Shown: piece by piece, positions 37 to 17,248 of the stretch
Position numbering within the stretch: the first letter of the stretch is position 1
How the letters are laid out: every line of letters begins with the position of its first letter
Source of the DNA: a virus
Taxonomy: Duplodnaviria; Heunggongvirae; Uroviricota; Caudoviricetes
Reading direction: 5' to 3' (one strand)
DNA: 17,248 bases
Virus record (IMG/VR): IMGVR_UViG_2778261313_000007
Program-made: the position numbers and the translations under genes
Notes under the pieces: generated by a model
What the model was told of the DNA's origin: nothing
Databases searched by the model: none
What the model saw: the letters and a program-made list of their open reading frames with translations, nothing else

Positions 37-1446
37 TTAAGTGATAACAGATGTCTGGAAATATAGGGGCAAATCCAAGAATGGAGCACGGTCACGAGTT
101 ACATCAGAGATATCGGAATAACCTAAACCATTTTTGTTAGCAACAACAACACGACGGTTAAAGGTAATGCCGCCAGATGTGTGACGAACAACATTAACGT
201 TATTAGCGTAGGTATCAAGGACACCATCACCGTTTTGTTTAAATCCAGTATCACTATCGCCTAAAACAATAGAATTTCCACCCAATCCGTTAGCAACACC
301 AACACCAAAACCGCTATTAAACTTAGGAATGGTTGCATCCTGACTAATAGACAGTTGGGGAGCGTTAATTTTACCGTTTACGCTAAACTCGATTGCGGTA
401 GTACCAGGACCGCCAGCACGCTGTGTGTAGAAATGCCAGCCGCTTTCATCTGCGCATTCTAATACTTGTTTACGAGTATCATTACCCCATGCACGAATAT
501 TGAAGCTAGATTGTCCGGTATTCTTACCCCATCTCATTTGACCAGCAACTTCAAGATCACCTAAGAAATATGCCTTTAGTCCACCTGTAGCCATATTACG
601 TTCGGTGCTGAAATGGCGACCTTTGCTGTCTTCGAGGTATAAAACGTTATCACGGGCGTTGTTGCTATCGCCCCAATGATTAAATCGAATATAATCACGC
701 GATCCAGAACGCCCAGCGTCGAAAGTCAAAAAACCTTTCTTAATGTAAACGTCATTACTAAAACGAGCGGCACGGCTTGCACGTTCTAACGTTAATGCAT
801 CTTCGTTACCATCACCGCCTAATTGAACGTTACCGGAAGTCAGATCATAAATGAATGGTCGATAAGTATTCCAACCACCAAACTTATCGTTTTCAGCCGT
901 TGACAGAAGATAAACTTTTGCGGAGTCATTGCGCCAAAATGCACCATAATTGCCGTAAATCATACGGAATGCATTTGAGTTAGCAGCTACATACTCGCCG
1001 TTTGTATATACAATTTTAGTTGCACCAGTGGTAATAGAGCATTGACCGTTAGCTTCTAGCTGAAATGAGTTTTTCCCCTGATCGCTATACCATTGGAAGT
1101 TATTTGTTTCAGCACTACCAAAACCAATCCAACCTTGACGAGCATTAGCACCATTGCGGCGGTCTTGCCATTCAATATAGTTTGATTGATTACTAGGACG
1201 CTCTAATCTAAGAACGTTTTGTCCGGCATCAAATACACCTTTACCAGTAAACATGGTGCGACCAGTGATTCGTAGAACTTCGCTAGAATCGGTAGTACCA
1301 GTCGCTAAACGATAAACGTTACCTTGAACAGTTTCATGCCAGATTGTTTCTGCGGCTTTACTACGGAATTTACGAAGATATTTTTTACCAGTACCTGAAT
1401 CGTTATTCAAACTGACAATATCATATGTACCCTGTCCGTTTATCAA
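37..1446 (-). CDS. tail fibre / receptor-binding protein (distal fibre)
   Basis: 468-codon ORF ending at TAA 37-39. G/N/S/T/D-rich composition typical of fibre tips. Overlaps the upstream fibre gene by 26 nt. The only start near the 5' end is TTG at 1444-1446 (no in-frame ATG for about 60 codons) and there is no clear SD, so the start is uncertain and may be translationally coupled. Confidence 0.6.
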   Translation of the reverse strand: MINGQGTYDIVSLNNDSGTGKKYLRKFRSKAAETIWHETVQGNVYRLATGTTDSSEVLRITGRTMFTGKGVFDAGQNVLRLERPSNQSNYIEWQDRRNGANARQGWIGFGSAETNNFQWYSDQGKNSFQLEANGQCSITTGATKIVYTNGEYVAANSNAFRMIYGNYGAFWRNDSAKVYLLSTAENDKFGGWNTYRPFIYDLTSGNVQLGGDGNEDALTLERASRAARFSNDVYIKKGFLTFDAGRSGSRDYIRFNHWGDSNNARDNVLYLEDSKGRHFSTERNMATGGLKAYFLGDLEVAGQMRWGKNTGQSSFNIRAWGNDTRKQVLECADESGWHFYTQRAGGPGTTAIEFSVNGKINAPQLSISQDATIPKFNSGFGVGVANGLGGNSIVLGDSDTGFKQNGDGVLDTYANNVNVVRHTSGGITFNRRVVVANKNGLGYSDISDVTRDRAPFLDLPLYFQTSVIT

Positions 1447-3082
1447 ACATCAACGTTCCGGCCTTGTTTTCGGTGTTGAACATTGTAATAACACGTCCAT
1501 CTGTAACACCAGTAGACGGCTTAACGTTAGTCATAGCTGGGGTGTCATGAACAGTCAGTGAAACACCGCTAGTCTTACCATATTCGACAATAACGTTATC
1601 AGTATAACGACCGTAGTTAACGTAAATGTCGTAGTTATCACCGGAAGTATTAACCGCAAATACTTGATGAACGTTCAAAGAGTTTCGACGATAAGCAGCA
1701 ATACTAACGCCTTTCGGGTTATTGTTACCGGAACGGATAACAATTTCAAGGAAATCAACCTGATCATAGGAGTTAACGTTATAACCATTACCACCGAAGA
1801 TACGAAGCATTACCATACGACCATTTTGTGGGATCGTAGCCGTAGCAATCTTGAAATAAGCACGGGATTCACTACCAGAAGGAACAGACATTGTGACATT
1901 TTTAATAAACATCTTATCAATTTCGCCTTTGGTATATGCGCCAATTTCAGCAGGAGTCGGTTTATCCCCTTCGTGATACATTTTATAGCTAAACGCTTTT
2001 TGTCCCTGAGCATCAAAACCATAGGTTTCAACACGAGATCCGCCAGACGCATAACGGAAAGTAAATCCTCGACCATGCGCTTTACCGGAAGAGTGAGGAA
2101 CGTTAAGGGTTAGATCCATGAGTCCATCTTGACCATTGGTACGGAATGCACCGAAGTAATTAAGATCTCTCGCGGTTGAATCTTCCAGATAGTTACCAGT
2201 CTTGCTATACAAATACGCGCCGTGATAGGTCTTTGTGTTCTTCTTGATATATGCTGCGTTAGCACTACCTTCAATACCATCAATTCGCTTGTTGGCGGCT
2301 GTAATTGCGGCATCGGTCGATGATTTGTTCTGGTCTACCTTGTTGTTAATAGCGGTATGGTTACTATTCACAGTGCCAGTAAGGTTACTGATTTTAGTAT
2401 CAGCATCTTTCTTGTTGTCGGAAACGACCTTTTCAATCGCTGTTTTGTTAGCTGCAACCGTGCTAGTTAAGCTAGAAATTTTGTTATCTGCATCGGTTTT
2501 ATTTGCAGTAACAGTTTTAGTTAAGTTGCTAACGTTGGTGTTAGTGGTATTAACCTTGTTGTTAATCGCGGTGTTATTGTCAGTGACCGTTTTCGTTAAA
2601 GCTGCATGTTTGCTATCTGCATCAGATTTGTTTGCGGCAACGGTTCTTTCAATTGCGATCTTATTCGCAGATACGGTCCCCGTAAGGTTATTGATCTTAG
2701 TGTCGGCATCGGTTTTATTTGCCGTAACTGTCTGGGTTAAGTTACTAACAGTGGTGTTGGTAGCATCAATGCGCTTATTGGTTGCGGTGTCTTTAGCGGT
2801 AATAGTCTGATTCAGTTCAGCTTTAACACTAGCCAGATTATTAGCGGCCTCTTGTTTGTTGGAAGCAATAACACGGTCAGTGCTAGTTTTATTCTGGTCT
2901 ACTTTCGTGTTAAGTTCAGCGTGTTTTTCTGGAGAAACAGAGATTTGAACTACTGCGTTATTTTTATCTTTGGTATACAGAACGTGATCAGCAAGGTTAA
3001 TAGCCAATTCACCCTGTGATAATTGTTCCGGCGTTGGTTTTTTACCAGCCGTTTGTGTGCGTTTAAATTGGATTGATTGCAT
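1421..3082 (-). CDS. tail fibre protein with T/N-rich repeat shaft
   Basis: ATG at 3080-3082 preceded by GAGGTGA SD, stop TGA 1421-1423. N-terminal motif KKPTPEQLSQGELAINLADHVLY. Central repeats of about 14 aa (TVTANKTDADTKINNLTGTV and variants), visible as DNA-level repeats across roughly 2300-2900. C-terminal globular domain. Confidence 0.7.
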   Translation of the reverse strand: MQSIQFKRTQTAGKKPTPEQLSQGELAINLADHVLYTKDKNNAVVQISVSPEKHAELNTKVDQNKTSTDRVIASNKQEAANNLASVKAELNQTITAKDTATNKRIDATNTTVSNLTQTVTANKTDADTKINNLTGTVSANKIAIERTVAANKSDADSKHAALTKTVTDNNTAINNKVNTTNTNVSNLTKTVTANKTDADNKISSLTSTVAANKTAIEKVVSDNKKDADTKISNLTGTVNSNHTAINNKVDQNKSSTDAAITAANKRIDGIEGSANAAYIKKNTKTYHGAYLYSKTGNYLEDSTARDLNYFGAFRTNGQDGLMDLTLNVPHSSGKAHGRGFTFRYASGGSRVETYGFDAQGQKAFSYKMYHEGDKPTPAEIGAYTKGEIDKMFIKNVTMSVPSGSESRAYFKIATATIPQNGRMVMLRIFGGNGYNVNSYDQVDFLEIVIRSGNNNPKGVSIAAYRRNSLNVHQVFAVNTSGDNYDIYVNYGRYTDNVIVEYGKTSGVSLTVHDTPAMTNVKPSTGVTDGRVITMFNTENKAGTLMFDKRTGYI

Positions 3083-4005: not shown

Positions 4006-4428
4006 TTAAAAACGCGCTAGATAAGAAAATTTAAGGCTAAGTGTCCCAACGATACCCCCATCACTAGAATCATCGTCATAATCGGTATTAGAGGCTACTG
4101 GAGTGATATCTGAAATAGAGAAGCCCAAATCTTTAAAACGTGGGTTATCCGGCTGAATCTGGATTATCTGGCAAATACCCTCATGGATTTTTGTTTCATG
4201 AATCTGAGAATATAATTGCATTTCGATAACGCATTCAGCTTGCATTGCATTACCACCACGGACCCTAGTGTAAGTCTCATTCATGCCAGTAATCCAACAA
4301 ACCACGTCATCACTAAAACCTTGCTGAGTTTGTTCTACGTTTAAAGCCAGACCTAAATCTTGTTCGATAATATCTTGCAAGGCGCGTTTGATTTTCAGTC
4401 TAGGCATATTATTAACGGTAGCGAGCAT
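4006..4428 (-). CDS. hypothetical small virion protein (head completion / head-tail connector candidate)
   Basis: ORF-track ORF 4006..4476 trimmed to the ATG at 4426-4428 (MLATVNN...), which has a GGGGG SD 5 nt upstream. Overlaps the stop of the upstream gene, suggesting translational coupling. Role inferred from position after the capsid gene only. Confidence 0.45.
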   Translation of the reverse strand: MLATVNNMPRLKIKRALQDIIEQDLGLALNVEQTQQGFSDDVVCWITGMNETYTRVRGGNAMQAECVIEMQLYSQIHETKIHEGICQIIQIQPDNPRFKDLGFSISDITPVASNTDYDDDSSDGGIVGTLSLKFSYLARF

Positions 4429-11083: not shown

Positions 11084-11680
11084 ATGCTAATTAATCAGCA
11101 AGAAAGAGATGAATTAGCCTTGTCTTGTACCGATCATGAATATCGTTTGCCAGTAAAACATAAGCACTTAAAGACCGATTACACTACATCCGGTTTTAGT
11201 CGCGAAGAAGCGAAAGAGATTTTAATCGAGTTGTATCGCGATCATGGGTATACCGATATTCACAACTTCTTTAAGAAGCATAGAACATCACATACAGAGT
11301 TTCGGAGAGTCCGAGATTGGTTTGATTTTGATATCAAGCGTTATTATCGCATTGATGACGGTCCTATCTATCGGTTGCAGTGGAAGCCGATCCGAGAAGT
11401 GTTGAAACAGAAGAGATTGAATCACGCTATTACACGCTATCGTAACGAGGCTTTCAAGAAAGGCTATGGTGATACAAGGGAACTATTCGTTGAACTCGCT
11501 AACGTGAAGTACAGCCACTATTACAACGATCCTAAATCCTTCTTTGAAGTGCTTCGCAAGGTTGATATAAGTCGGGGTACATACTATTCACGGTTGAAGA
11601 AGTACGGGATTAAGGCAGAGTTCTTTATGTCGGTTGACGATGGAGAACTTTTTCCGATAAAATGTAAGTCCTCTAAATAA
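11084..11680 (+). CDS. DNA-binding protein with C-terminal helix-turn-helix (resolvase/IS-type HTH-like); regulator or possible small terminase
   Basis: ATG 11084 preceded by AAGGAGGG SD. 198 aa. C-terminal DISRGTYYSRLKKYGIK matches the HTH-like motif shared with the two small proteins at 11715 and 14977. Divergent from terL. Confidence 0.55.
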   Translation: MLINQQERDELALSCTDHEYRLPVKHKHLKTDYTTSGFSREEAKEILIELYRDHGYTDIHNFFKKHRTSHTEFRRVRDWFDFDIKRYYRIDDGPIYRLQWKPIREVLKQKRLNHAITRYRNEAFKKGYGDTRELFVELANVKYSHYYNDPKSFFEVLRKVDISRGTYYSRLKKYGIKAEFFMSVDDGELFPIKCKSSK

Positions 11681-11714
11681 AAGTGAACATTCACTTTAAT
11701 TTGGAGAAATGACT

Positions 11715-11942
11715 ATGACTACTAAAACTACTCGCGGTCGTCCTGCCCGTTTTAACGCTGAACAAATGGCTGATATTGCCTACGCTTATTATACAGCGGA
11801 TCGTGGTAAGGAAGCGAAAGAACAGATTCTTAGTGAACATGGGATTTCAATTGCCCAATTCTATAAGAATATGAAGAAGTTAGACATTAAATTCTATGTT
11901 CAGATCGGTGATGGTCAGATCGTAGAAGCAACAGGTTTTTGA
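11715..11942 (+). CDS. small DNA-binding protein (AT-hook-like RGRP N-terminus plus HTH-like C-terminus)
   Basis: ORF-track ORF starts at 11709, but the GGAG SD at 11703-11706 is better spaced for the second ATG at 11715 (MTTKTTRGRPAR...). Motif GISIAQFYKNMKKLDIK is paralogous to 14977..15159. Followed by a strong terminator. Confidence 0.45.
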   Translation: MTTKTTRGRPARFNAEQMADIAYAYYTADRGKEAKEQILSEHGISIAQFYKNMKKLDIKFYVQIGDGQIVEATGF

Positions 11943-13734: not shown

Positions 13735-13934
13735 AGTGGAAATCCTCTAAAAGAAAGTGAATCAATCTAATATTATTTATAAAGAGAAAATTCTTGTTAT
13801 TATGAAAGGTGATTGTATTCAGTCGGGCAAAGCCCTCCTTCATAGATTTTGAATAAATCATCATCAAAACGAAGAAGTATCTTTAGAATATAAGAATCTT
13901 TCTTTTGGAGAAATAATAATCAGGAAGCAATTTG

Positions 13935-13963
13935 GCAACCGAAGGTTGCAATCCCGAAGGGAT
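13935..13963 (-). other. tandem UUCG-type hairpins
   Basis: Two adjacent inverted repeats: GCAACC-GAA-GGTTGC (13935-13949) and ATCCC-GAA-GGGAT (13951-13963). On the minus strand both read as C(UUCG)G tetraloop hairpins. Confidence 0.4.
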
Positions 13964-14089
13964 AACCAATACCTTTCTAGAAAGTGATTGTTACTCACTT
14001 CGTTCGTTTACTAGAATCAGTTAGTAACTAGTATTAAATCCCTTTCTGAGAAAATCCTTTCAAAAGCGAGTGAACGCCGTAGGTGTGAA

Positions 14090-14169
14090 CGTGAGCGAAG
14101 CGAACTATCCAATCCCTTTCGAATCCTGCTTGCAGGTCTTAGAAGGTGTTGATGGGCGCTTCGCGCACG
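14090..14169. repeat. extended imperfect dyad symmetry centred on a CCTGC-TT-GCAGG palindrome
   Basis: Arms CGTGAGCGAAGCG (14090-14102) and CGCTTCGCGCACG (14157-14169) are reverse complements with one mismatch. The midpoint coincides with the palindrome at 14125-14136. Partial symmetry extends out to about 14073-14180. Confidence 0.6.
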
Positions 14170-14310
14170 GCTACGCCGTATTCTTTTTGCGAGATCTTTC
14201 TTGAACGTAGTGAGAGAAAACGAGCAAAAAGGAGAACGTTAGTTCGAATTTTATATTCTATGGTCTGTGTGGTGAAATGTCTTTCAAGATCATACACTTA
14301 TGAGATTGAA

Positions 14311-14407
14311 GTGTAGGGTTAGTGTAGGTGTGTAGGTGTTATAGTGTAGGTTTACTGGCTAGTGTAGTGTAGGCCAATCCCTTTAAAGCGTAGGTTTGTA
14401 GTGTAGG
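14311..14407. repeat. cluster of seven direct GTGTAGG(T) repeats (iteron-like)
   Basis: Six exact GTGTAGG copies starting at 14311, 14322, 14330, 14344, 14367 and 14401, plus the variant GCGTAGG at 14388. All in the same orientation, 8-23 bp apart, immediately left of an AT-rich tract. Confidence 0.7.
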
Positions 14408-14413
14408 TTTTTC

Positions 14414-14430
14414 ATCAAAAATTTTGATAG
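14414..14430. repeat. 15-bp palindrome ATCAAAAATTTTGAT (operator-like), copy 1
   Basis: Perfect palindrome at 14414-14428. The 15-mer CAAAAATTTTGATAG (14416-14430) recurs exactly at 14565-14579. Confidence 0.6.
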
Positions 14431-14515
14431 AAAATTCTTGTATATTATTTAACCAGAAAATCACCAAAAACCGCTGTAAATGCATGATTTAAAAAGAATT
14501 ATCAAAAGGTCGTCG

Positions 14516-14524
14516 TGCTATAAT
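14516..14524 (+). promoter_or_regulatory. extended -10 promoter candidate
   Basis: TGcTATAAT (TG at 14516-14517, TATAAT at 14519-14524). The -35 is weak. Confidence 0.4.
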
Positions 14525-14564
14525 AGGTTATAAAGGTTGATAATCGTTATCCGCCATTTTCACA

Positions 14565-14579
14565 CAAAAATTTTGATAG
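14565..14579. repeat. copy 2 of the CAAAAATTTTGATAG element
   Basis: Exact 15-nt direct repeat of 14416-14430, lying about 25 bp upstream of the -35 of the strong plus-strand promoter. Confidence 0.6.
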
Positions 14580-14604
14580 TCATTTCTCGCTTAGATCAAG
14601 TGTA

Positions 14605-14633
14605 TTGACAACTATCAAGGATTATTTTATACT
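14605..14633 (+). promoter_or_regulatory. near-consensus sigma70 promoter
   Basis: TTGACA (14605-14610), a 17-nt spacer, then TATACT (14628-14633), directed toward the 14977-16529 genes. Confidence 0.6.
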
Positions 14634-14921
14634 TTTTCTCGTTGGTAGGGGTTGAAATTTTCGAAACAATCCCCATATTGATGATACGCAAGATTTTTTC
14701 GTGTATAAATACATGCATGAAAATGATTGTTCACTTCTGAAAATCCCCTGATTCACTGTTAATTCATACAGCACTGGCTAAACATACAGTACTTATTCGA
14801 TTGAATAATGTACGAATTGATTAATTATTAATCTTCTCTTTAGCAATTCGTGCTCCCACTGATCGGATATACAGTGGTTTTACAGGGTTTTTCGAAAAAC
14901 ATTTTATAAATAGAATTGTTC

Positions 14922-14941
14922 AGAGCAAAAAGCTCTTTTTT
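14922..14941 (+). terminator. weak hairpin plus T-run just upstream of the 14977 RBS (attenuator or leader terminator candidate)
   Basis: AGAGC-AAAAA-GCTCT followed by five to six T residues. Short AU-rich stem, so low confidence. Confidence 0.3.
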
Positions 14942-14976
14942 AAGAAATCATTATTCCAGATTTAGGAGGATATAAG

Positions 14977-15159
14977 ATGGCACGACCTGTTAAGTTCACT
15001 CGTGAAATCGTTTTAGAAATGGCAAAGCGTTATTTTGAACTGACACCTGATGTAGTGATGGGTGAATGGTTTAAAGGTGAAGGTATTGATCAATCAACCT
15101 TCCACAAACTCTTAAAGAAGTATGACATTAAAGTAAAGATTACCGCCGAGGTCTGGTAA
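14977..15159 (+). CDS. small DNA-binding protein (HTH-like), paralog of 11715..11942
   Basis: ATG 14977 preceded by AGGAGGA SD. 60 aa. N-terminal ARPVKF and C-terminal GIDQSTFHKLLKKYDIK align with the other two HTH-like proteins. Confidence 0.5.
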   Translation: MARPVKFTREIVLEMAKRYFELTPDVVMGEWFKGEGIDQSTFHKLLKKYDIKVKITAEVW

Positions 15160-15203
15160 TAACCTTTCACTGAGAATTATATGATGGCTTTAAAAATAAA
15201 AAA

Positions 15204-15231
15204 GCCTCCCTGTTGGCGCAAGGAGGCTTTT
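15204..15231 (+). terminator. terminator-like hairpin between 14977..15159 and the acidic-protein gene
   Basis: GCCTCC (15204-15209), a 12-nt loop, GGAGGC (15222-15227), then TTTT. Confidence 0.45.
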
Positions 15232-15275
15232 GATATGAACAATTAAACTAACACAGAGCATTCAGGAGTATTTAT

Positions 15276-16271
15276 ATGAAAAATTCTAAGCGCATTACCT
15301 TCAACATGTTTATTAAATCCAACGGCAAACTGAACATCACTGTCATGGAAGGTAAAGCAAGCAAACAAGACAAATCCTTTGAAGTAGTATCAGGTAAGAC
15401 TCTGACCGAAATGCGTCAGAATGCTGGCATCAAAGACGGTGCTGAATGGCAGATCACCAACCGTTTCGACAAACGTCACGTTAAACCTACACTGGTAGAA
15501 GGTGAATCCGTTTATTGCTTCGCTCGTGCTGTTAAAGCTGATGAAACTTACTATCTGGCTGTTGTTAAAACTGCTTCCGGCTTCCGTGCTGTAATGCATC
15601 ACAAGAGCAAACGTAACGAATACGGCGTAGAGACCCAGGAAGTCGCAAAACGCTTCCGTACTGTTGCTACCGAATCCACTGTAAAGGATGTTTCTGGTAC
15701 TGTTAACACCGCTAAAGGCGGTTCCTTCTACAACCACGCATTACAGGTTACTTCCTCCTTCTTCTGCAAAAAAGAAGCACAGAAAGAAGTTTCTCCGGTA
15801 GTAGTTGAAGAAGTTAAAGAAGAAGTTGCAGTGGTTGAATATTCCGAAGTTGAAGCACTGAAAGCACGCATCGCTGAACTGGAAGCTGAAAACGCATCTC
15901 TGAAAGCTGAACTGGCAGCACAGGAAACCACTTTCGAAGTAGCAGCGGTTGAAGTTGAAGCAGTTGAAGAAAAATCCATTGATGAAGAACTGGAAGAACT
16001 CCTTAACTATCGCTGGGGTGTTGTTGCAGAAGTAGAACAAGAAGTTGCTCCGGTAGTTGTTCCGGTTGAAGTTGAAGAAGAATCCGCACCTGTTACTAAC
16101 TTTGAATCCCTGCGCAATAACTTTATGGCTAAATTCAAAACCACTTGGGAAGATACCGAAGAAGAACAAGAAGAGATTGAAGTAAACGAAGACGAGATCC
16201 GCGAAGCACAGATGGCACTGCATGACGCTATCTACGACACCAACTACAGCGCCTACGCATACGCAGCTTAA
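15276..16271 (+). CDS. two-domain protein: basic N-terminal domain plus acidic coiled-coil C-terminal half; high-expression codon usage
   Basis: ATG 15276 with AGGAG SD. 331 aa. The C-terminal half is dominated by E/V/A with heptad-like EALKARIAELEAENASLKAELAAQE. Codons are strongly biased to CTG/CGT/GGT/GCT/TTC/AAC, unlike the rest of the window. Confidence 0.65.
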   Translation: MKNSKRITFNMFIKSNGKLNITVMEGKASKQDKSFEVVSGKTLTEMRQNAGIKDGAEWQITNRFDKRHVKPTLVEGESVYCFARAVKADETYYLAVVKTASGFRAVMHHKSKRNEYGVETQEVAKRFRTVATESTVKDVSGTVNTAKGGSFYNHALQVTSSFFCKKEAQKEVSPVVVEEVKEEVAVVEYSEVEALKARIAELEAENASLKAELAAQETTFEVAAVEVEAVEEKSIDEELEELLNYRWGVVAEVEQEVAPVVVPVEVEEESAPVTNFESLRNNFMAKFKTTWEDTEEEQEEIEVNEDEIREAQMALHDAIYDTNYSAYAYAA

Positions 16272-16529: not shown

Positions 16530-16552
16530 AAAAAGGGACTCCGAAGAGTCCC
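16528..16552 (-). terminator. rho-independent terminator (minus strand; may also act on plus-strand transcripts)
   Basis: Minus-strand RNA GGGACUC-UUCG-GAGUCCC followed by U7 (plus-strand A-run 16528-16534). Lies directly after the stop of the plus-strand gene 16287..16529. Confidence 0.65.
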
Positions 16553-16630
16553 TAGTAAGTTTAGGTTAGGTTTGCACAACAAAGATGAGGTTATAATGAA
16601 CATAATGCCACATTATTCTTTAAAGCCAGA

Positions 16631-16653
16631 AAAATAACCGCCCCGAAGGGCGG
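16631..16653 (-). terminator. second minus-strand terminator
   Basis: Minus-strand RNA CCGCCC-UUCG-GGGCGG followed by UUAUUUUUC. Confidence 0.5.
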
Positions 16654-16799
16654 GAGGATTAACACTCAATCTATACTTGTTATGTTTTTATGTTGTATGA
16701 TCACTGACTATGAAAACACTGTTTTAATGGCTTTTAATCGGGAATCCTCAAAGAAGATCCCCTGTTAATAACCATAAGGAGAAAAGGCAGATTACACTA

Positions 16800-16973
16800 T
16801 TATTTAGTATCCTTTTTACAGCAACTAAAAAGAATAAACAAAAAGAAGCATACCCAGCCGTAAGGCGTACCGATTAGAAATTTGAAAAACACCACCAGCG
16901 ATATAAAAATCAATTTAATGCCAGCGACGATAGTCAAAAACAGCAGAGTAGCAAAGTAGACAAAAAGATCCAT
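16800..16973 (-). CDS. small hydrophobic membrane peptide (57 aa)
   Basis: Below the ORF-track cutoff. ATG 16971-16973 with AGAGGA SD 7 nt upstream. MDLFVYFATLLFLTIVAGIKLIFISLVVFFKFLIGTPYGWVCFFLFILFSCCKKDTK, predicted two transmembrane helices with a charged C-terminus. Confidence 0.3.
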   Translation of the reverse strand: MDLFVYFATLLFLTIVAGIKLIFISLVVFFKFLIGTPYGWVCFFLFILFSCCKKDTK

Positions 16974-17026
16974 AGATAATCCTCTTTGAAAACGACCATC
17001 ATCTATAGTTCAATTCATCGATTTAA

Positions 17027-17128
17027 TTAATGATACTTGAAAGCGTTACACAAAGTAGAAATGCCAATATGTGCCAGTGAATATACGATAGTTAATCCTA
17101 CAGCCAGATAAATCAAAAATTCAACCAT
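17027..17128 (-). CDS. small hydrophobic membrane peptide (33 aa)
   Basis: Below the ORF-track cutoff. ATG 17126-17128 with GAGGAT SD 6 nt upstream. MVEFLIYLAVGLTIVYSLAHIGISTLCNAFKYH, a single predicted transmembrane helix. Confidence 0.25.
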   Translation of the reverse strand: MVEFLIYLAVGLTIVYSLAHIGISTLCNAFKYH

Positions 17129-17140
17129 AGGTAAATCCTC

Positions 17141-17186
17141 AAATAAGAAAAAGGTTAGCGGGGGATGTTCTCCCATAAGCGCTAAC
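17141..17186 (-). terminator. hairpin plus U-rich tract upstream of the 33-aa peptide gene
   Basis: GTTAGCG ... CGCTAAC 7-bp stem (17154-17186) enclosing a GGGA/TCCC inner stem. On the minus strand it is followed by CUUUUUCUUAUUU. Confidence 0.35.
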
Positions 17187-17248
17187 TTAAGGGTTGTGGT
17201 ATTACGCCTGATATGATTTAACGTGCCGATGAATTACTCTCACGATAA

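Follow-up and report, generated by a model that had tools for sequence, protein, structure and literature searches.

The window analysed in this study is a stretch of 17,248 nucleotides of tailed-phage DNA (Caudoviricetes; IMG/VR record IMGVR_UViG_2778261313_000007), in which a non-coding region of 1541 bp (13735-15275) separates two divergent operons. A leftward operon with a 155-amino acid (aa) open reading frame (ORF), a 51-aa ORF and a Rha-family regulator lies to the left of this region, and rightward genes for proteins of 60, 331 and 80 aa lie to its right. Within the region we studied a hairpin element at 14073-14180, which stands in front of an array of GTGTAGG repeats. Judged from its sequence, the element has a conserved architecture, namely a small hairpin, a long hairpin, a second small hairpin and a T-run, and most probably it belongs to a kind already known, either an RNA stem-loop/terminator or an origin hairpin, in a new setting. 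It forms the left border of a type-specific module of repeats and protein, and the existence of this module in three types is the more interesting result. Matches in complete Escherichia coli chromosomes placed the window in a ~35-kb E. coli prophage, which was inserted in hicB by a large serine recombinase and belongs to a family that 58 of 5426 complete E. coli genomes (~1%) carry.

The element begins on the + strand with the 5' small hairpin ACGCC-GTA-GGTGT (14074-14086), seen in the sequence, whose 3' half reads GGCGT in most relatives; the C-to-T variant of the window (14084) gives a G.U pair on the + strand. It is followed by a long imperfect hairpin (14090-14169, + strand) with basal arms at 14090-14102 and 14157-14169, a C/U-rich 5' arm and a G/A/U-rich 3' arm, and then by the 3' small hairpin ACGGC-TAC-GCCGT (14167-14179, + strand), which shares 3 nt with the end of the outer stem of the long hairpin. 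Directly 3' of the hairpins lies the T-run ATTCTTTTTG (14180-14189, + strand). The original prediction, made from the letters of the window, had described this segment as a nested dyad with arms complementary except for one mismatch, and the arms CGTGAGCGAAGCG and CGCTTCGCGCACG indeed pair at 12 of 13 positions. The segment was also rightly described as a GC-rich island (55.6% G+C at 14073-14180 vs 35.2% for the whole intergenic region) about 130 bp left of the repeats, the first of which starts at 14311, 131 bp to the right. The 12-bp palindrome claimed for its centre does not exist, as CCTGCTTGCAGG (14125-14136) has the reverse complement CCTGCAAGCAGG; this apical element, CCTG-CTTG-CAGG, is a 4-bp stem CCTG/CAGG closed by a CTTG (CUUG) loop, and with its centre at 14130.5 it misses by one base the arm midpoint (14129.5), on which it had been said to fall exactly.

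A total of 48 related loci were gathered with a conserved 25-29-nt upstream anchor, E. coli BLAST, IMG/VR and metagenomes. All loci have in common the left part, up to about 14060, and the right part, from about 14410, of the intergenic region, with a variable module in between. In type A (21 loci, including the window) the hairpin is followed by a spacer block and by GTGTAGG repeats; type B (22 loci) has a longer, diverged hairpin on the same basal stem and CAGGGGCAA repeats; type C (3 loci) lacks the long hairpin, having only GCGCCC-CGCA-GGGCGC, and carries CGGGGA repeats. In every type the repeats run in a single orientation, and the + strand is the G-rich one. Types A and B have the same basal stem, GTGAGCGAAGCG/CGCTTCGCGCA, at 23 of 23 positions, their inner arms are ~55% identical, and the remaining module barely aligns. 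Such invariant arms in DNA that is otherwise ~50% identical or unalignable could be half-sites on double-stranded DNA for a dimeric or looping phage or host protein common to A and B, and the length variants of type B, which carry different numbers of an apical 10-nt unit, do differ by one 10-bp unit. However, the arms stand 67 bp apart in type A and 84-105 bp apart in type B, a difference of 17 to 38 bp that does not amount to whole helical turns, and a third copy of the arm motif (<=2 mismatches) was not found in the window. A protein-binding site would also leave the strand asymmetry and the compensatory changes of the flanking hairpins, both described below, without explanation, and no candidate binding protein was identified, so that we consider this reading very unlikely. 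The original prediction had named a hairpin origin, a structured RNA and a dimeric protein site as its three options; the structured RNA is now favoured and the origin is plausible, while the dimeric protein has only the invariant arms on its side.

Secondary-structure prediction, which had been proposed as a check, gave a clear result for the RNA of the + strand. The 131 nt around the arms folded into one nested hairpin of ~100 nt at -52.7 kcal/mol (z = -3.9), and 1 of 200 shuffles was as good. The minus-strand RNA of the same 131 nt folded at -42.4 kcal/mol (z = -2.9), and with DNA parameters the fold, at -23.2 kcal/mol (z = -2.1), was modestly better than shuffles. When 110-nt windows were slid along both strands (3428 in total), 14081-14190(+) came out as the strongest G+C-corrected fold outlier (z = -4.7), and its minus-strand counterpart was outside the top 25. 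The nested dyad of about 100 bp is the thermodynamic optimum in type A, but its outermost nest, CGTAG/CTACG, is better read as two small hairpins. The nested fold of type A exceeds the three-hairpin fold (-43.3 kcal/mol) by 9 kcal/mol because each of its small hairpins is nearly the reverse complement of the other; in type B, pairing between the two is impossible and the small hairpins are individually conserved.

The strand preference was found in both types, with + strand RNA 9-10 kcal/mol more stable than minus-strand RNA in A and B (-51/-55 vs -41/-46), whereas DNA parameters showed no strand asymmetry. Type A has six G.U pairs on the + strand and one on the minus strand, and the three transitions found in stems (14084 C/T, 14153 A/G and an A/G in type B) all yield G.U on the + strand. 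The apical G(CUUG)C belongs to a known class of stable RNA tetraloops. This evidence favours action as a single + strand, as RNA more than as DNA.

Comparison of the 13 distinct A and B hairpin sequences, the covariation check proposed earlier, bore out the two small hairpins and lent nothing to the inner stems. The 5' small hairpin is CGCC-GTA-GGCG in type A and CGTC-GCA-GACG in type B, where one compensatory change has replaced a C-G pair by U-A. The 3' small hairpin reads CGGC-TAC-GCCG in type A and GGGC-(TAC/AAA/TAAA)-GCCC in type B, with one compensatory C-G to G-C change and a freely varying loop. Both are 100% paired in all 13 sequences, and the three-hairpin model pairs 88.7% of alignment cells, compared with 33-50% for slid partners. 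As there are only two deep clades, this covariation amounts to two or three events and not to strong statistics. Nucleotide diversity (pi) in type A was lowest in the hairpin segment (0.009), with 0.035 in the spacer block, 0.027 in the repeats, 0.024 in the 5' part of the protein gene and 0.05-0.21 in the flanks.

Considering these results, our preferred reading, which we put forward tentatively and from sequence evidence, is that the element may be an RNA stem-loop/terminator on a rightward transcript that would end before the repeats. This reading is favoured because of the + strand RNA signals, a T-run flagged as terminator-like and an upstream cassette that resembles known promoter/stem-loop cassettes. 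The rightward transcript would probably start at this RB49-type promoter cassette, about 180-290 nt upstream, and its RNA would fold into the small, long and small hairpins. Termination or strong attenuation would then occur at 14180-14189, just ahead of the GTGTAGG array, yielding a short, stable, structured non-coding RNA and shielding the array from upstream transcription. The long hairpin may have a further role in RNA stability, processing or type-specific regulation.

The T-run fits this reading in several respects. The terminator scan flagged ACGGCTACGCCGT followed by ATTCTTTTTG, and 14167-14189 has the GC-rich stem-loop and the succeeding U-rich tract of an intrinsic terminator, with a stem kept by compensatory change, a free loop and a promoter-like cassette upstream in the same orientation. 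In the nested fold a longer GC stem stops 1 nt before the T-run. The difference from an ordinary intrinsic terminator would lie in the preceding 80-nt hairpin with its invariant base, in the weakness of the terminator hairpin proper (5 bp, -5.4 kcal/mol) and in the non-canonical versions of types B and C. A second hairpin, CTTTTTGC...GCAAAAAG (14183-14231, + strand), is an inverted repeat that has the T-run in common with the hairpin cluster and was also seen in the folds. The type-specific spacer block (14191-14300) then fills the space between the hairpins and the repeats; it is near-invariant in type A and weakly alignable to type B. Protein coding across the element was considered and rejected, since the ORFs start only with GTG or TTG and the relatives carry 1-nt and 10-nt indels.

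The upstream cassette (13840-13965, + strand) is promoter-like, with TAGAAT at 13884-13889 as its -10 hexamer, followed by tandem CCGAAGG hairpins at 13935-13949 and 13951-13963, and it occurs in all three types. Its first part (13840-13925) is 75-80% identical over 75-85 bp to unannotated intergenic spots of phages RB49, phi1 and JSE (E = 1e-7), which have the same orientation and lie upstream of genes. These spots are the published promoter(early)-stem-loop (PeSL) cassettes of RB49-type phages, in which an early promoter is combined with stem-loops at which transcription is terminated in vivo (Arbiol et al., 2010, PMC2839356). Stem-loops in or near the present cassette were found at 13825-13835, 13935-13963, 14074-14086 and 14167-14179, and hairpins of RB49 are alike in design (CTCC-GTA-GGAG, TCGC-GAA-GCGA and CCGC-TAC-GCGG). 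As with PeSL cassettes, the cassette marks the border of an exchangeable module here, and the prophage also has RB49-type tail-fibre DNA (~78-81% identical to RB49 gp37). Unlike the T4-like carriers of PeSL cassettes, the carrier here is a temperate ~35-kb prophage, the promoter hexamers are weak, and the long hairpin has no equivalent in those cassettes: 14040-14290 showed no similarity to RB49-type cassettes, and no counterpart of the long hairpin was found in any cultured phage. The cassette and the RB49-like tail-fibre DNA point to exchange between this temperate family and Krischvirus phages, and the system offers a handle on how promoter/stem-loop cassettes common with RB49-type lytic phages mediate module exchange.

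Several observations weigh against a stem-loop/terminator. The -35 hexamer of the cassette matches at 3 of 6 positions by eye, is poor by sigma-70 rules and was not flagged by the promoter scan, and a second candidate promoter (13988-14017) is not conserved in the relatives. The counterpart of the T-run in types B and C is a ATATCTTT(TT)G block, which is not canonical because it lies 8-10 nt from the GC hairpin stem, and it went unflagged in the terminator scan. The overall G/T richness of the + strand is in itself favourable to G.U pairing. The inner stems remain helical mainly by one-sided, G.U-tolerant changes and a register shift, and they give no covariation support because chimeras of a type B 5' arm and a type A 3' arm fold like native pairs. 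In the basal stem, a pair is broken by a T/A polymorphism at 14161 that occurs in A and B alike and gives A.A in 4 of the 13 distinct sequences. An 80-nt hairpin whose basal stem is sequence-identical in A and B is also more than a plain terminator needs, and type C manages without a long hairpin. The 13-nt arm pair alone is within chance, with two such pairs (13-nt inverted repeats with one mismatch within 100 nt) in the window and a mean of 1.5 in dinucleotide shuffles. This result and the absence of the long hairpin from type C would agree with a relic, a quasi-palindrome with no function of its own that came along with the repeat module and was derived, for instance, from duplicated hairpins of the promoter/stem-loop cassette; the varying copy number of the apical 10-nt unit in type B points in the same direction, and a recent spread of the module could partly explain the low diversity. 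A relic has little probability in our view, given that the element is the top fold outlier of the window, that its diversity is 3- to 4-fold below that of other parts of the co-inherited module, and that an identical basal stem across deeply diverged types is accompanied by compensatory changes in both small hairpins.

The repeats and the orphan 331-aa protein form the rest of the module that the element borders. The GTGTAGG array (14311-14407, + strand) consists of six exact repeats with GCGTAGG and GTGTAGT variants, all in one orientation and irregularly spaced; the window contains nine exact copies of GTGTAGG (six of them in the array on the + strand) where 1.1 were expected, a number reached in 0 of 200 shuffles. 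Relating the small hairpins to the repeats was tried and dropped, as it takes 2 mismatches in 7. Beyond the array the G+C content falls to 29%, and repeats in one orientation next to an AT-rich stretch are what an iteron origin presents. The 331-aa protein (15276-16271, + strand) consists of a type-specific N-terminal domain of ~175 aa followed by a coiled coil and an acidic tail with -AA at its end. The proteins of all three types (320-340 aa) share this layout, in which the N-domain is the variable part; the second type C protein ends in -VA, and the type A and type B proteins are 26% identical. Among the loci with enough sequence (labelled L001-L050), each type has its own N-domain without exception (21 A, 19 B and 3 C loci), whereas shuffling among types is seen for alleles of the 60-aa protein (54-100% identity), for two versions of the non-coding DNA in between, for the 155-aa gene and Rha, and for the terminase alleles. 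Because repeat type and N-domain co-vary while the DNA between them is shuffled, a specificity pair of site and protein is expected, and from these sequence patterns the repeats and the 331-aa protein are probably a pair of either origin and initiator or operator and regulator.

This protein had no match in Pfam, PHROGs, NCBIfam or PADLOC, including any known Rep family, and an exhaustive HMMER search returned only six relatives. Its structure model was unreliable and gave no meaningful fold match and no Rep-family fold or domain; an OB-fold (oligonucleotide/oligosaccharide-binding fold) reading of its strand order was not supported. The N-domains of types A and C had no match in 72,556 plasmids, and relatives of the hairpin were likewise absent from this plasmid collection. 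The region and the 331-aa protein are carried by no cultured phage and by no plasmid in the collections searched, DNA of the window other than the tail-fibre DNA had no match among cultured phages, and the GTDB species representatives had no match to the conserved DNA anchor or to the neighbouring 155-aa protein. A literature search on this prophage family found nothing relevant. Rha was the sole early protein to which the profile libraries assigned a family, and neither a CI-type repressor nor a replication gene other than the candidate 331-aa protein was recognisable in the ~35-kb prophage. The module is a concrete handle on origin or immunity determinants in phages whose early functions are wholly unannotated.

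The position of the element next to these repeats raises the main alternative, which is possible though doubtful: the hairpins might be the single-stranded DNA (ssDNA) part of a replication origin, in which the array and the AT-rich stretch would be bound by the 331-aa protein and the hairpins, once unwound, would serve for priming or for the loading of replication proteins, as ssiA and ssiB do on either side of the RSF1010 oriV iterons. The element adjoins one-orientation repeats that co-vary with the N-domain, followed by the region of 29% G+C, in a prophage that has no other recognisable replication gene. Moreover, 13930-14180 contains seven x-C-GNA-G-x' motifs, compared with 0.35 expected and 0 of 500 shuffles; to the left of the dyad centre most of them are on the top strand, and to its right most are on the bottom strand. 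In addition, the T/A polymorphism at 14161 falls on the free N of a bottom-strand GCGC-GNA-GCGC hairpin. A quasi-palindrome at 13955-14002 is perfect over 46 bp in one locus (L030), as expected if DNA hairpins form. CCGAAGG is the ssiA motif of RSF1010, and GCGNAGC-type motifs occur at the origins of G4 and St-1 (PMC13037366). The locus resembles single-strand initiation (ssi) signals (RSF1010 ssiA/ssiB and the complementary-strand origin of G4) in having C-GNA-G mini-hairpins such as CCGAAGG and GCGAAGC on opposite strands of a dyad beside direct repeats.

Several points separate the locus from ssi signals or speak against this alternative. Similarity in sequence to these signals was not found, and no search aimed at it was made. 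No cognate primase or helicase gene was found, there being no primase or helicase family in the scanned proteins or in the RefSeq prophage annotation, and the predicted fold signal is stronger for RNA than for DNA, where z is only -2.1 and strand preference is lacking. The GNA loop is lost in the 3' hairpin of several type B variants (AAA, TAAA), the same motifs are transcription terminators in RB49-type stem-loops, and the long hairpin is absent from type C. The absence of a Rep-family fold or domain from the 331-aa protein, and of plasmid matches to the A and C N-domains, also speaks against an origin. In phage lambda, the O protein has a type-specific N-domain matched to iterons and a conserved C-domain, and is labile to ClpXP. 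Our module is similar to O/ori of lambda in that repeat type and N-domain co-vary, there is recombination of the flanking modules, the types differ less in the C-terminal part of the protein, and the -AA (or -VA) ends of the proteins resemble ClpXP tags. It differs in that the 331-aa protein seems to have no sequence or fold similarity to O or Rep families, and in that the repeats lie ~900 bp upstream of the gene and not inside it.

In another alternative, the element might be a type-specific regulatory RNA, either a trans-acting small RNA or a cis-acting leader, through which, together with the repeats and the 331-aa protein, replication or immunity would be controlled. The RNA systems of P4 CI, P1/P7 c4 and ColE1 offer an analogy for this, but we consider it unlikely. 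It draws on the same RNA-level evidence as the stem-loop/terminator; the element always opens the type-specific module and is its best conserved part, the lack of a recognisable CI-type repressor in the prophage would suit such a function, and several terminator-like sites lie downstream toward the rightward genes. On the other hand, when the leader, the arms and the spacer block were scanned for duplexes with either strand of the whole window, nothing but self-antisense pairing rose above background, and the basal stem cannot encode type specificity because it is common to A and B. Physical adjacency (about 130 bp) alone can explain the linkage with the repeats. An Rfam search gave no family at the gathering score anywhere in the window and nothing over 14000-14300 at E values up to 10, and no tRNA or tmRNA was found in the window.

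A more far-reaching idea combines these elements, in that the hairpin RNA or ssDNA, the repeat array and the coiled-coil protein could together be a three-part specificity module, with at least three interchangeable types, that defines replication or immunity groups in a family of temperate E. coli phages in which neither a repressor nor an initiator, a helicase loader or a primase is recognisable. We consider this improbable; if true, it would represent a new origin or immunity system built of a structured nucleic acid and a protein of unknown fold.

Several known identities were rejected for the element. A cos or packaging site was dismissed because two terminase alleles are shuffled with respect to the hairpin types and type C has no hairpin. 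A retron msr-msd was rejected, with no reverse transcriptase domain in the flanking ORFs or the prophage annotation, and for a type III antitoxin array or a protelomerase target the defining genes or the regular repeat geometry were absent. An antisense immunity RNA of the P4 CI or P1/P7 c4 type was likewise set aside, as the duplex scan gave no target above background. A search of IMG/VR for the basal-arm motif with variable gaps returned, beyond family members, chance-like matches in contigs of 51-71% G+C and one unrelated low-G+C phage with GCGC-TTC-GCGC hairpins of its own.

Further sequence features were observed around the element. The motif CCAAT(C/A)CCTTT has three copies, all on the + strand, at 13966 in the shared left part, at 14109 in the 5' arm of the long hairpin and at 14374 inside the repeat array where 0.34 copies were expected and 0 of 200 shuffles had as many; two weaker versions of it, AAATCC(C)TTTC, lie at 14036 and 14052, and type B has counterparts in equivalent relative places. 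The quasi-palindrome at 13955-14002 spans 48 bp, is centred on CTAG and is 76% complementary in the window, and its counterpart in locus L030 (about 4350-4400) is the perfect 46-bp palindrome CGAAGGGATACCAATCACTTTCTAGAAAGTGATTGGTATCCCTTCG. Many type B loci (L013, L019, L022, L024, L027 and others) that lack the type A protein have one to three GTGTAGG sites just past their own repeats, ~900-960 nt after the anchor, one of them within the spacer of the consensus promoter TTGACActgtGTGTAGGatcggtgcTATAAT. These sites could be either a recombination relic or a sign of cross-type regulation.

To the right of the array, an operator-like palindrome, (A/C)TCAAAAATTTTGAT, occurs in two copies (14414-14428 and 14564-14577) that are 149 bp apart, flank an extended -10 promoter-like site, TGCTATAAT (14516-14524), and are kept in all three types having this version of the right-hand region. 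Downstream of them is a near-consensus promoter, TTGACA-17-TATACT (14605-14633). A terminator-like hairpin lies at 14922-14945, just ahead of the 60-aa gene, and a symmetric one, AAAAGCCTCCC...GGAGGCTTTT (15200-15231), lies between the 60-aa and 331-aa genes. This arrangement suggests that expression of the rightward genes may need read-through or separate promoters. The 60-aa protein (14977-15159) and a 77-aa protein (11709-11942) are paralogues with 33% identity (E = 3e-6), and a 198-aa protein (11084-11680) appears by eye to consist of two similar units. The pattern GRPxKF...GI...Y..LKKY.IK in these three proteins suggests small helix-turn-helix proteins, and no family match was obtained for them.

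Elsewhere in the window, the structural genes comprise a gpA-type terminase, a portal, a capsid-protease fusion and tail fibres. The homologue of the distal subunit of the long tail fibre consists here of two overlapping ORFs on the minus strand (37-1446 and 1421-3082; 469 and 553 aa), and strain H2 has a single 3531-nt gene in its place; the split may reflect a frameshift, another layout of the genes or an error in sequencing. The extremes of the window (17153-17248 and 1-35) are 94-100% identical to many E. coli and Salmonella plasmids near insertion sequence (IS) elements such as IS421, and for this reason the right end may extend into a mobile element or into sequence that is widely shared. 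A second long stretch without a convincing ORF, 16530-17248, contains the hairpin CCGCCC-CGAA-GGGCGG (~16638-16653), in which the CCGAAGG motif appears again.

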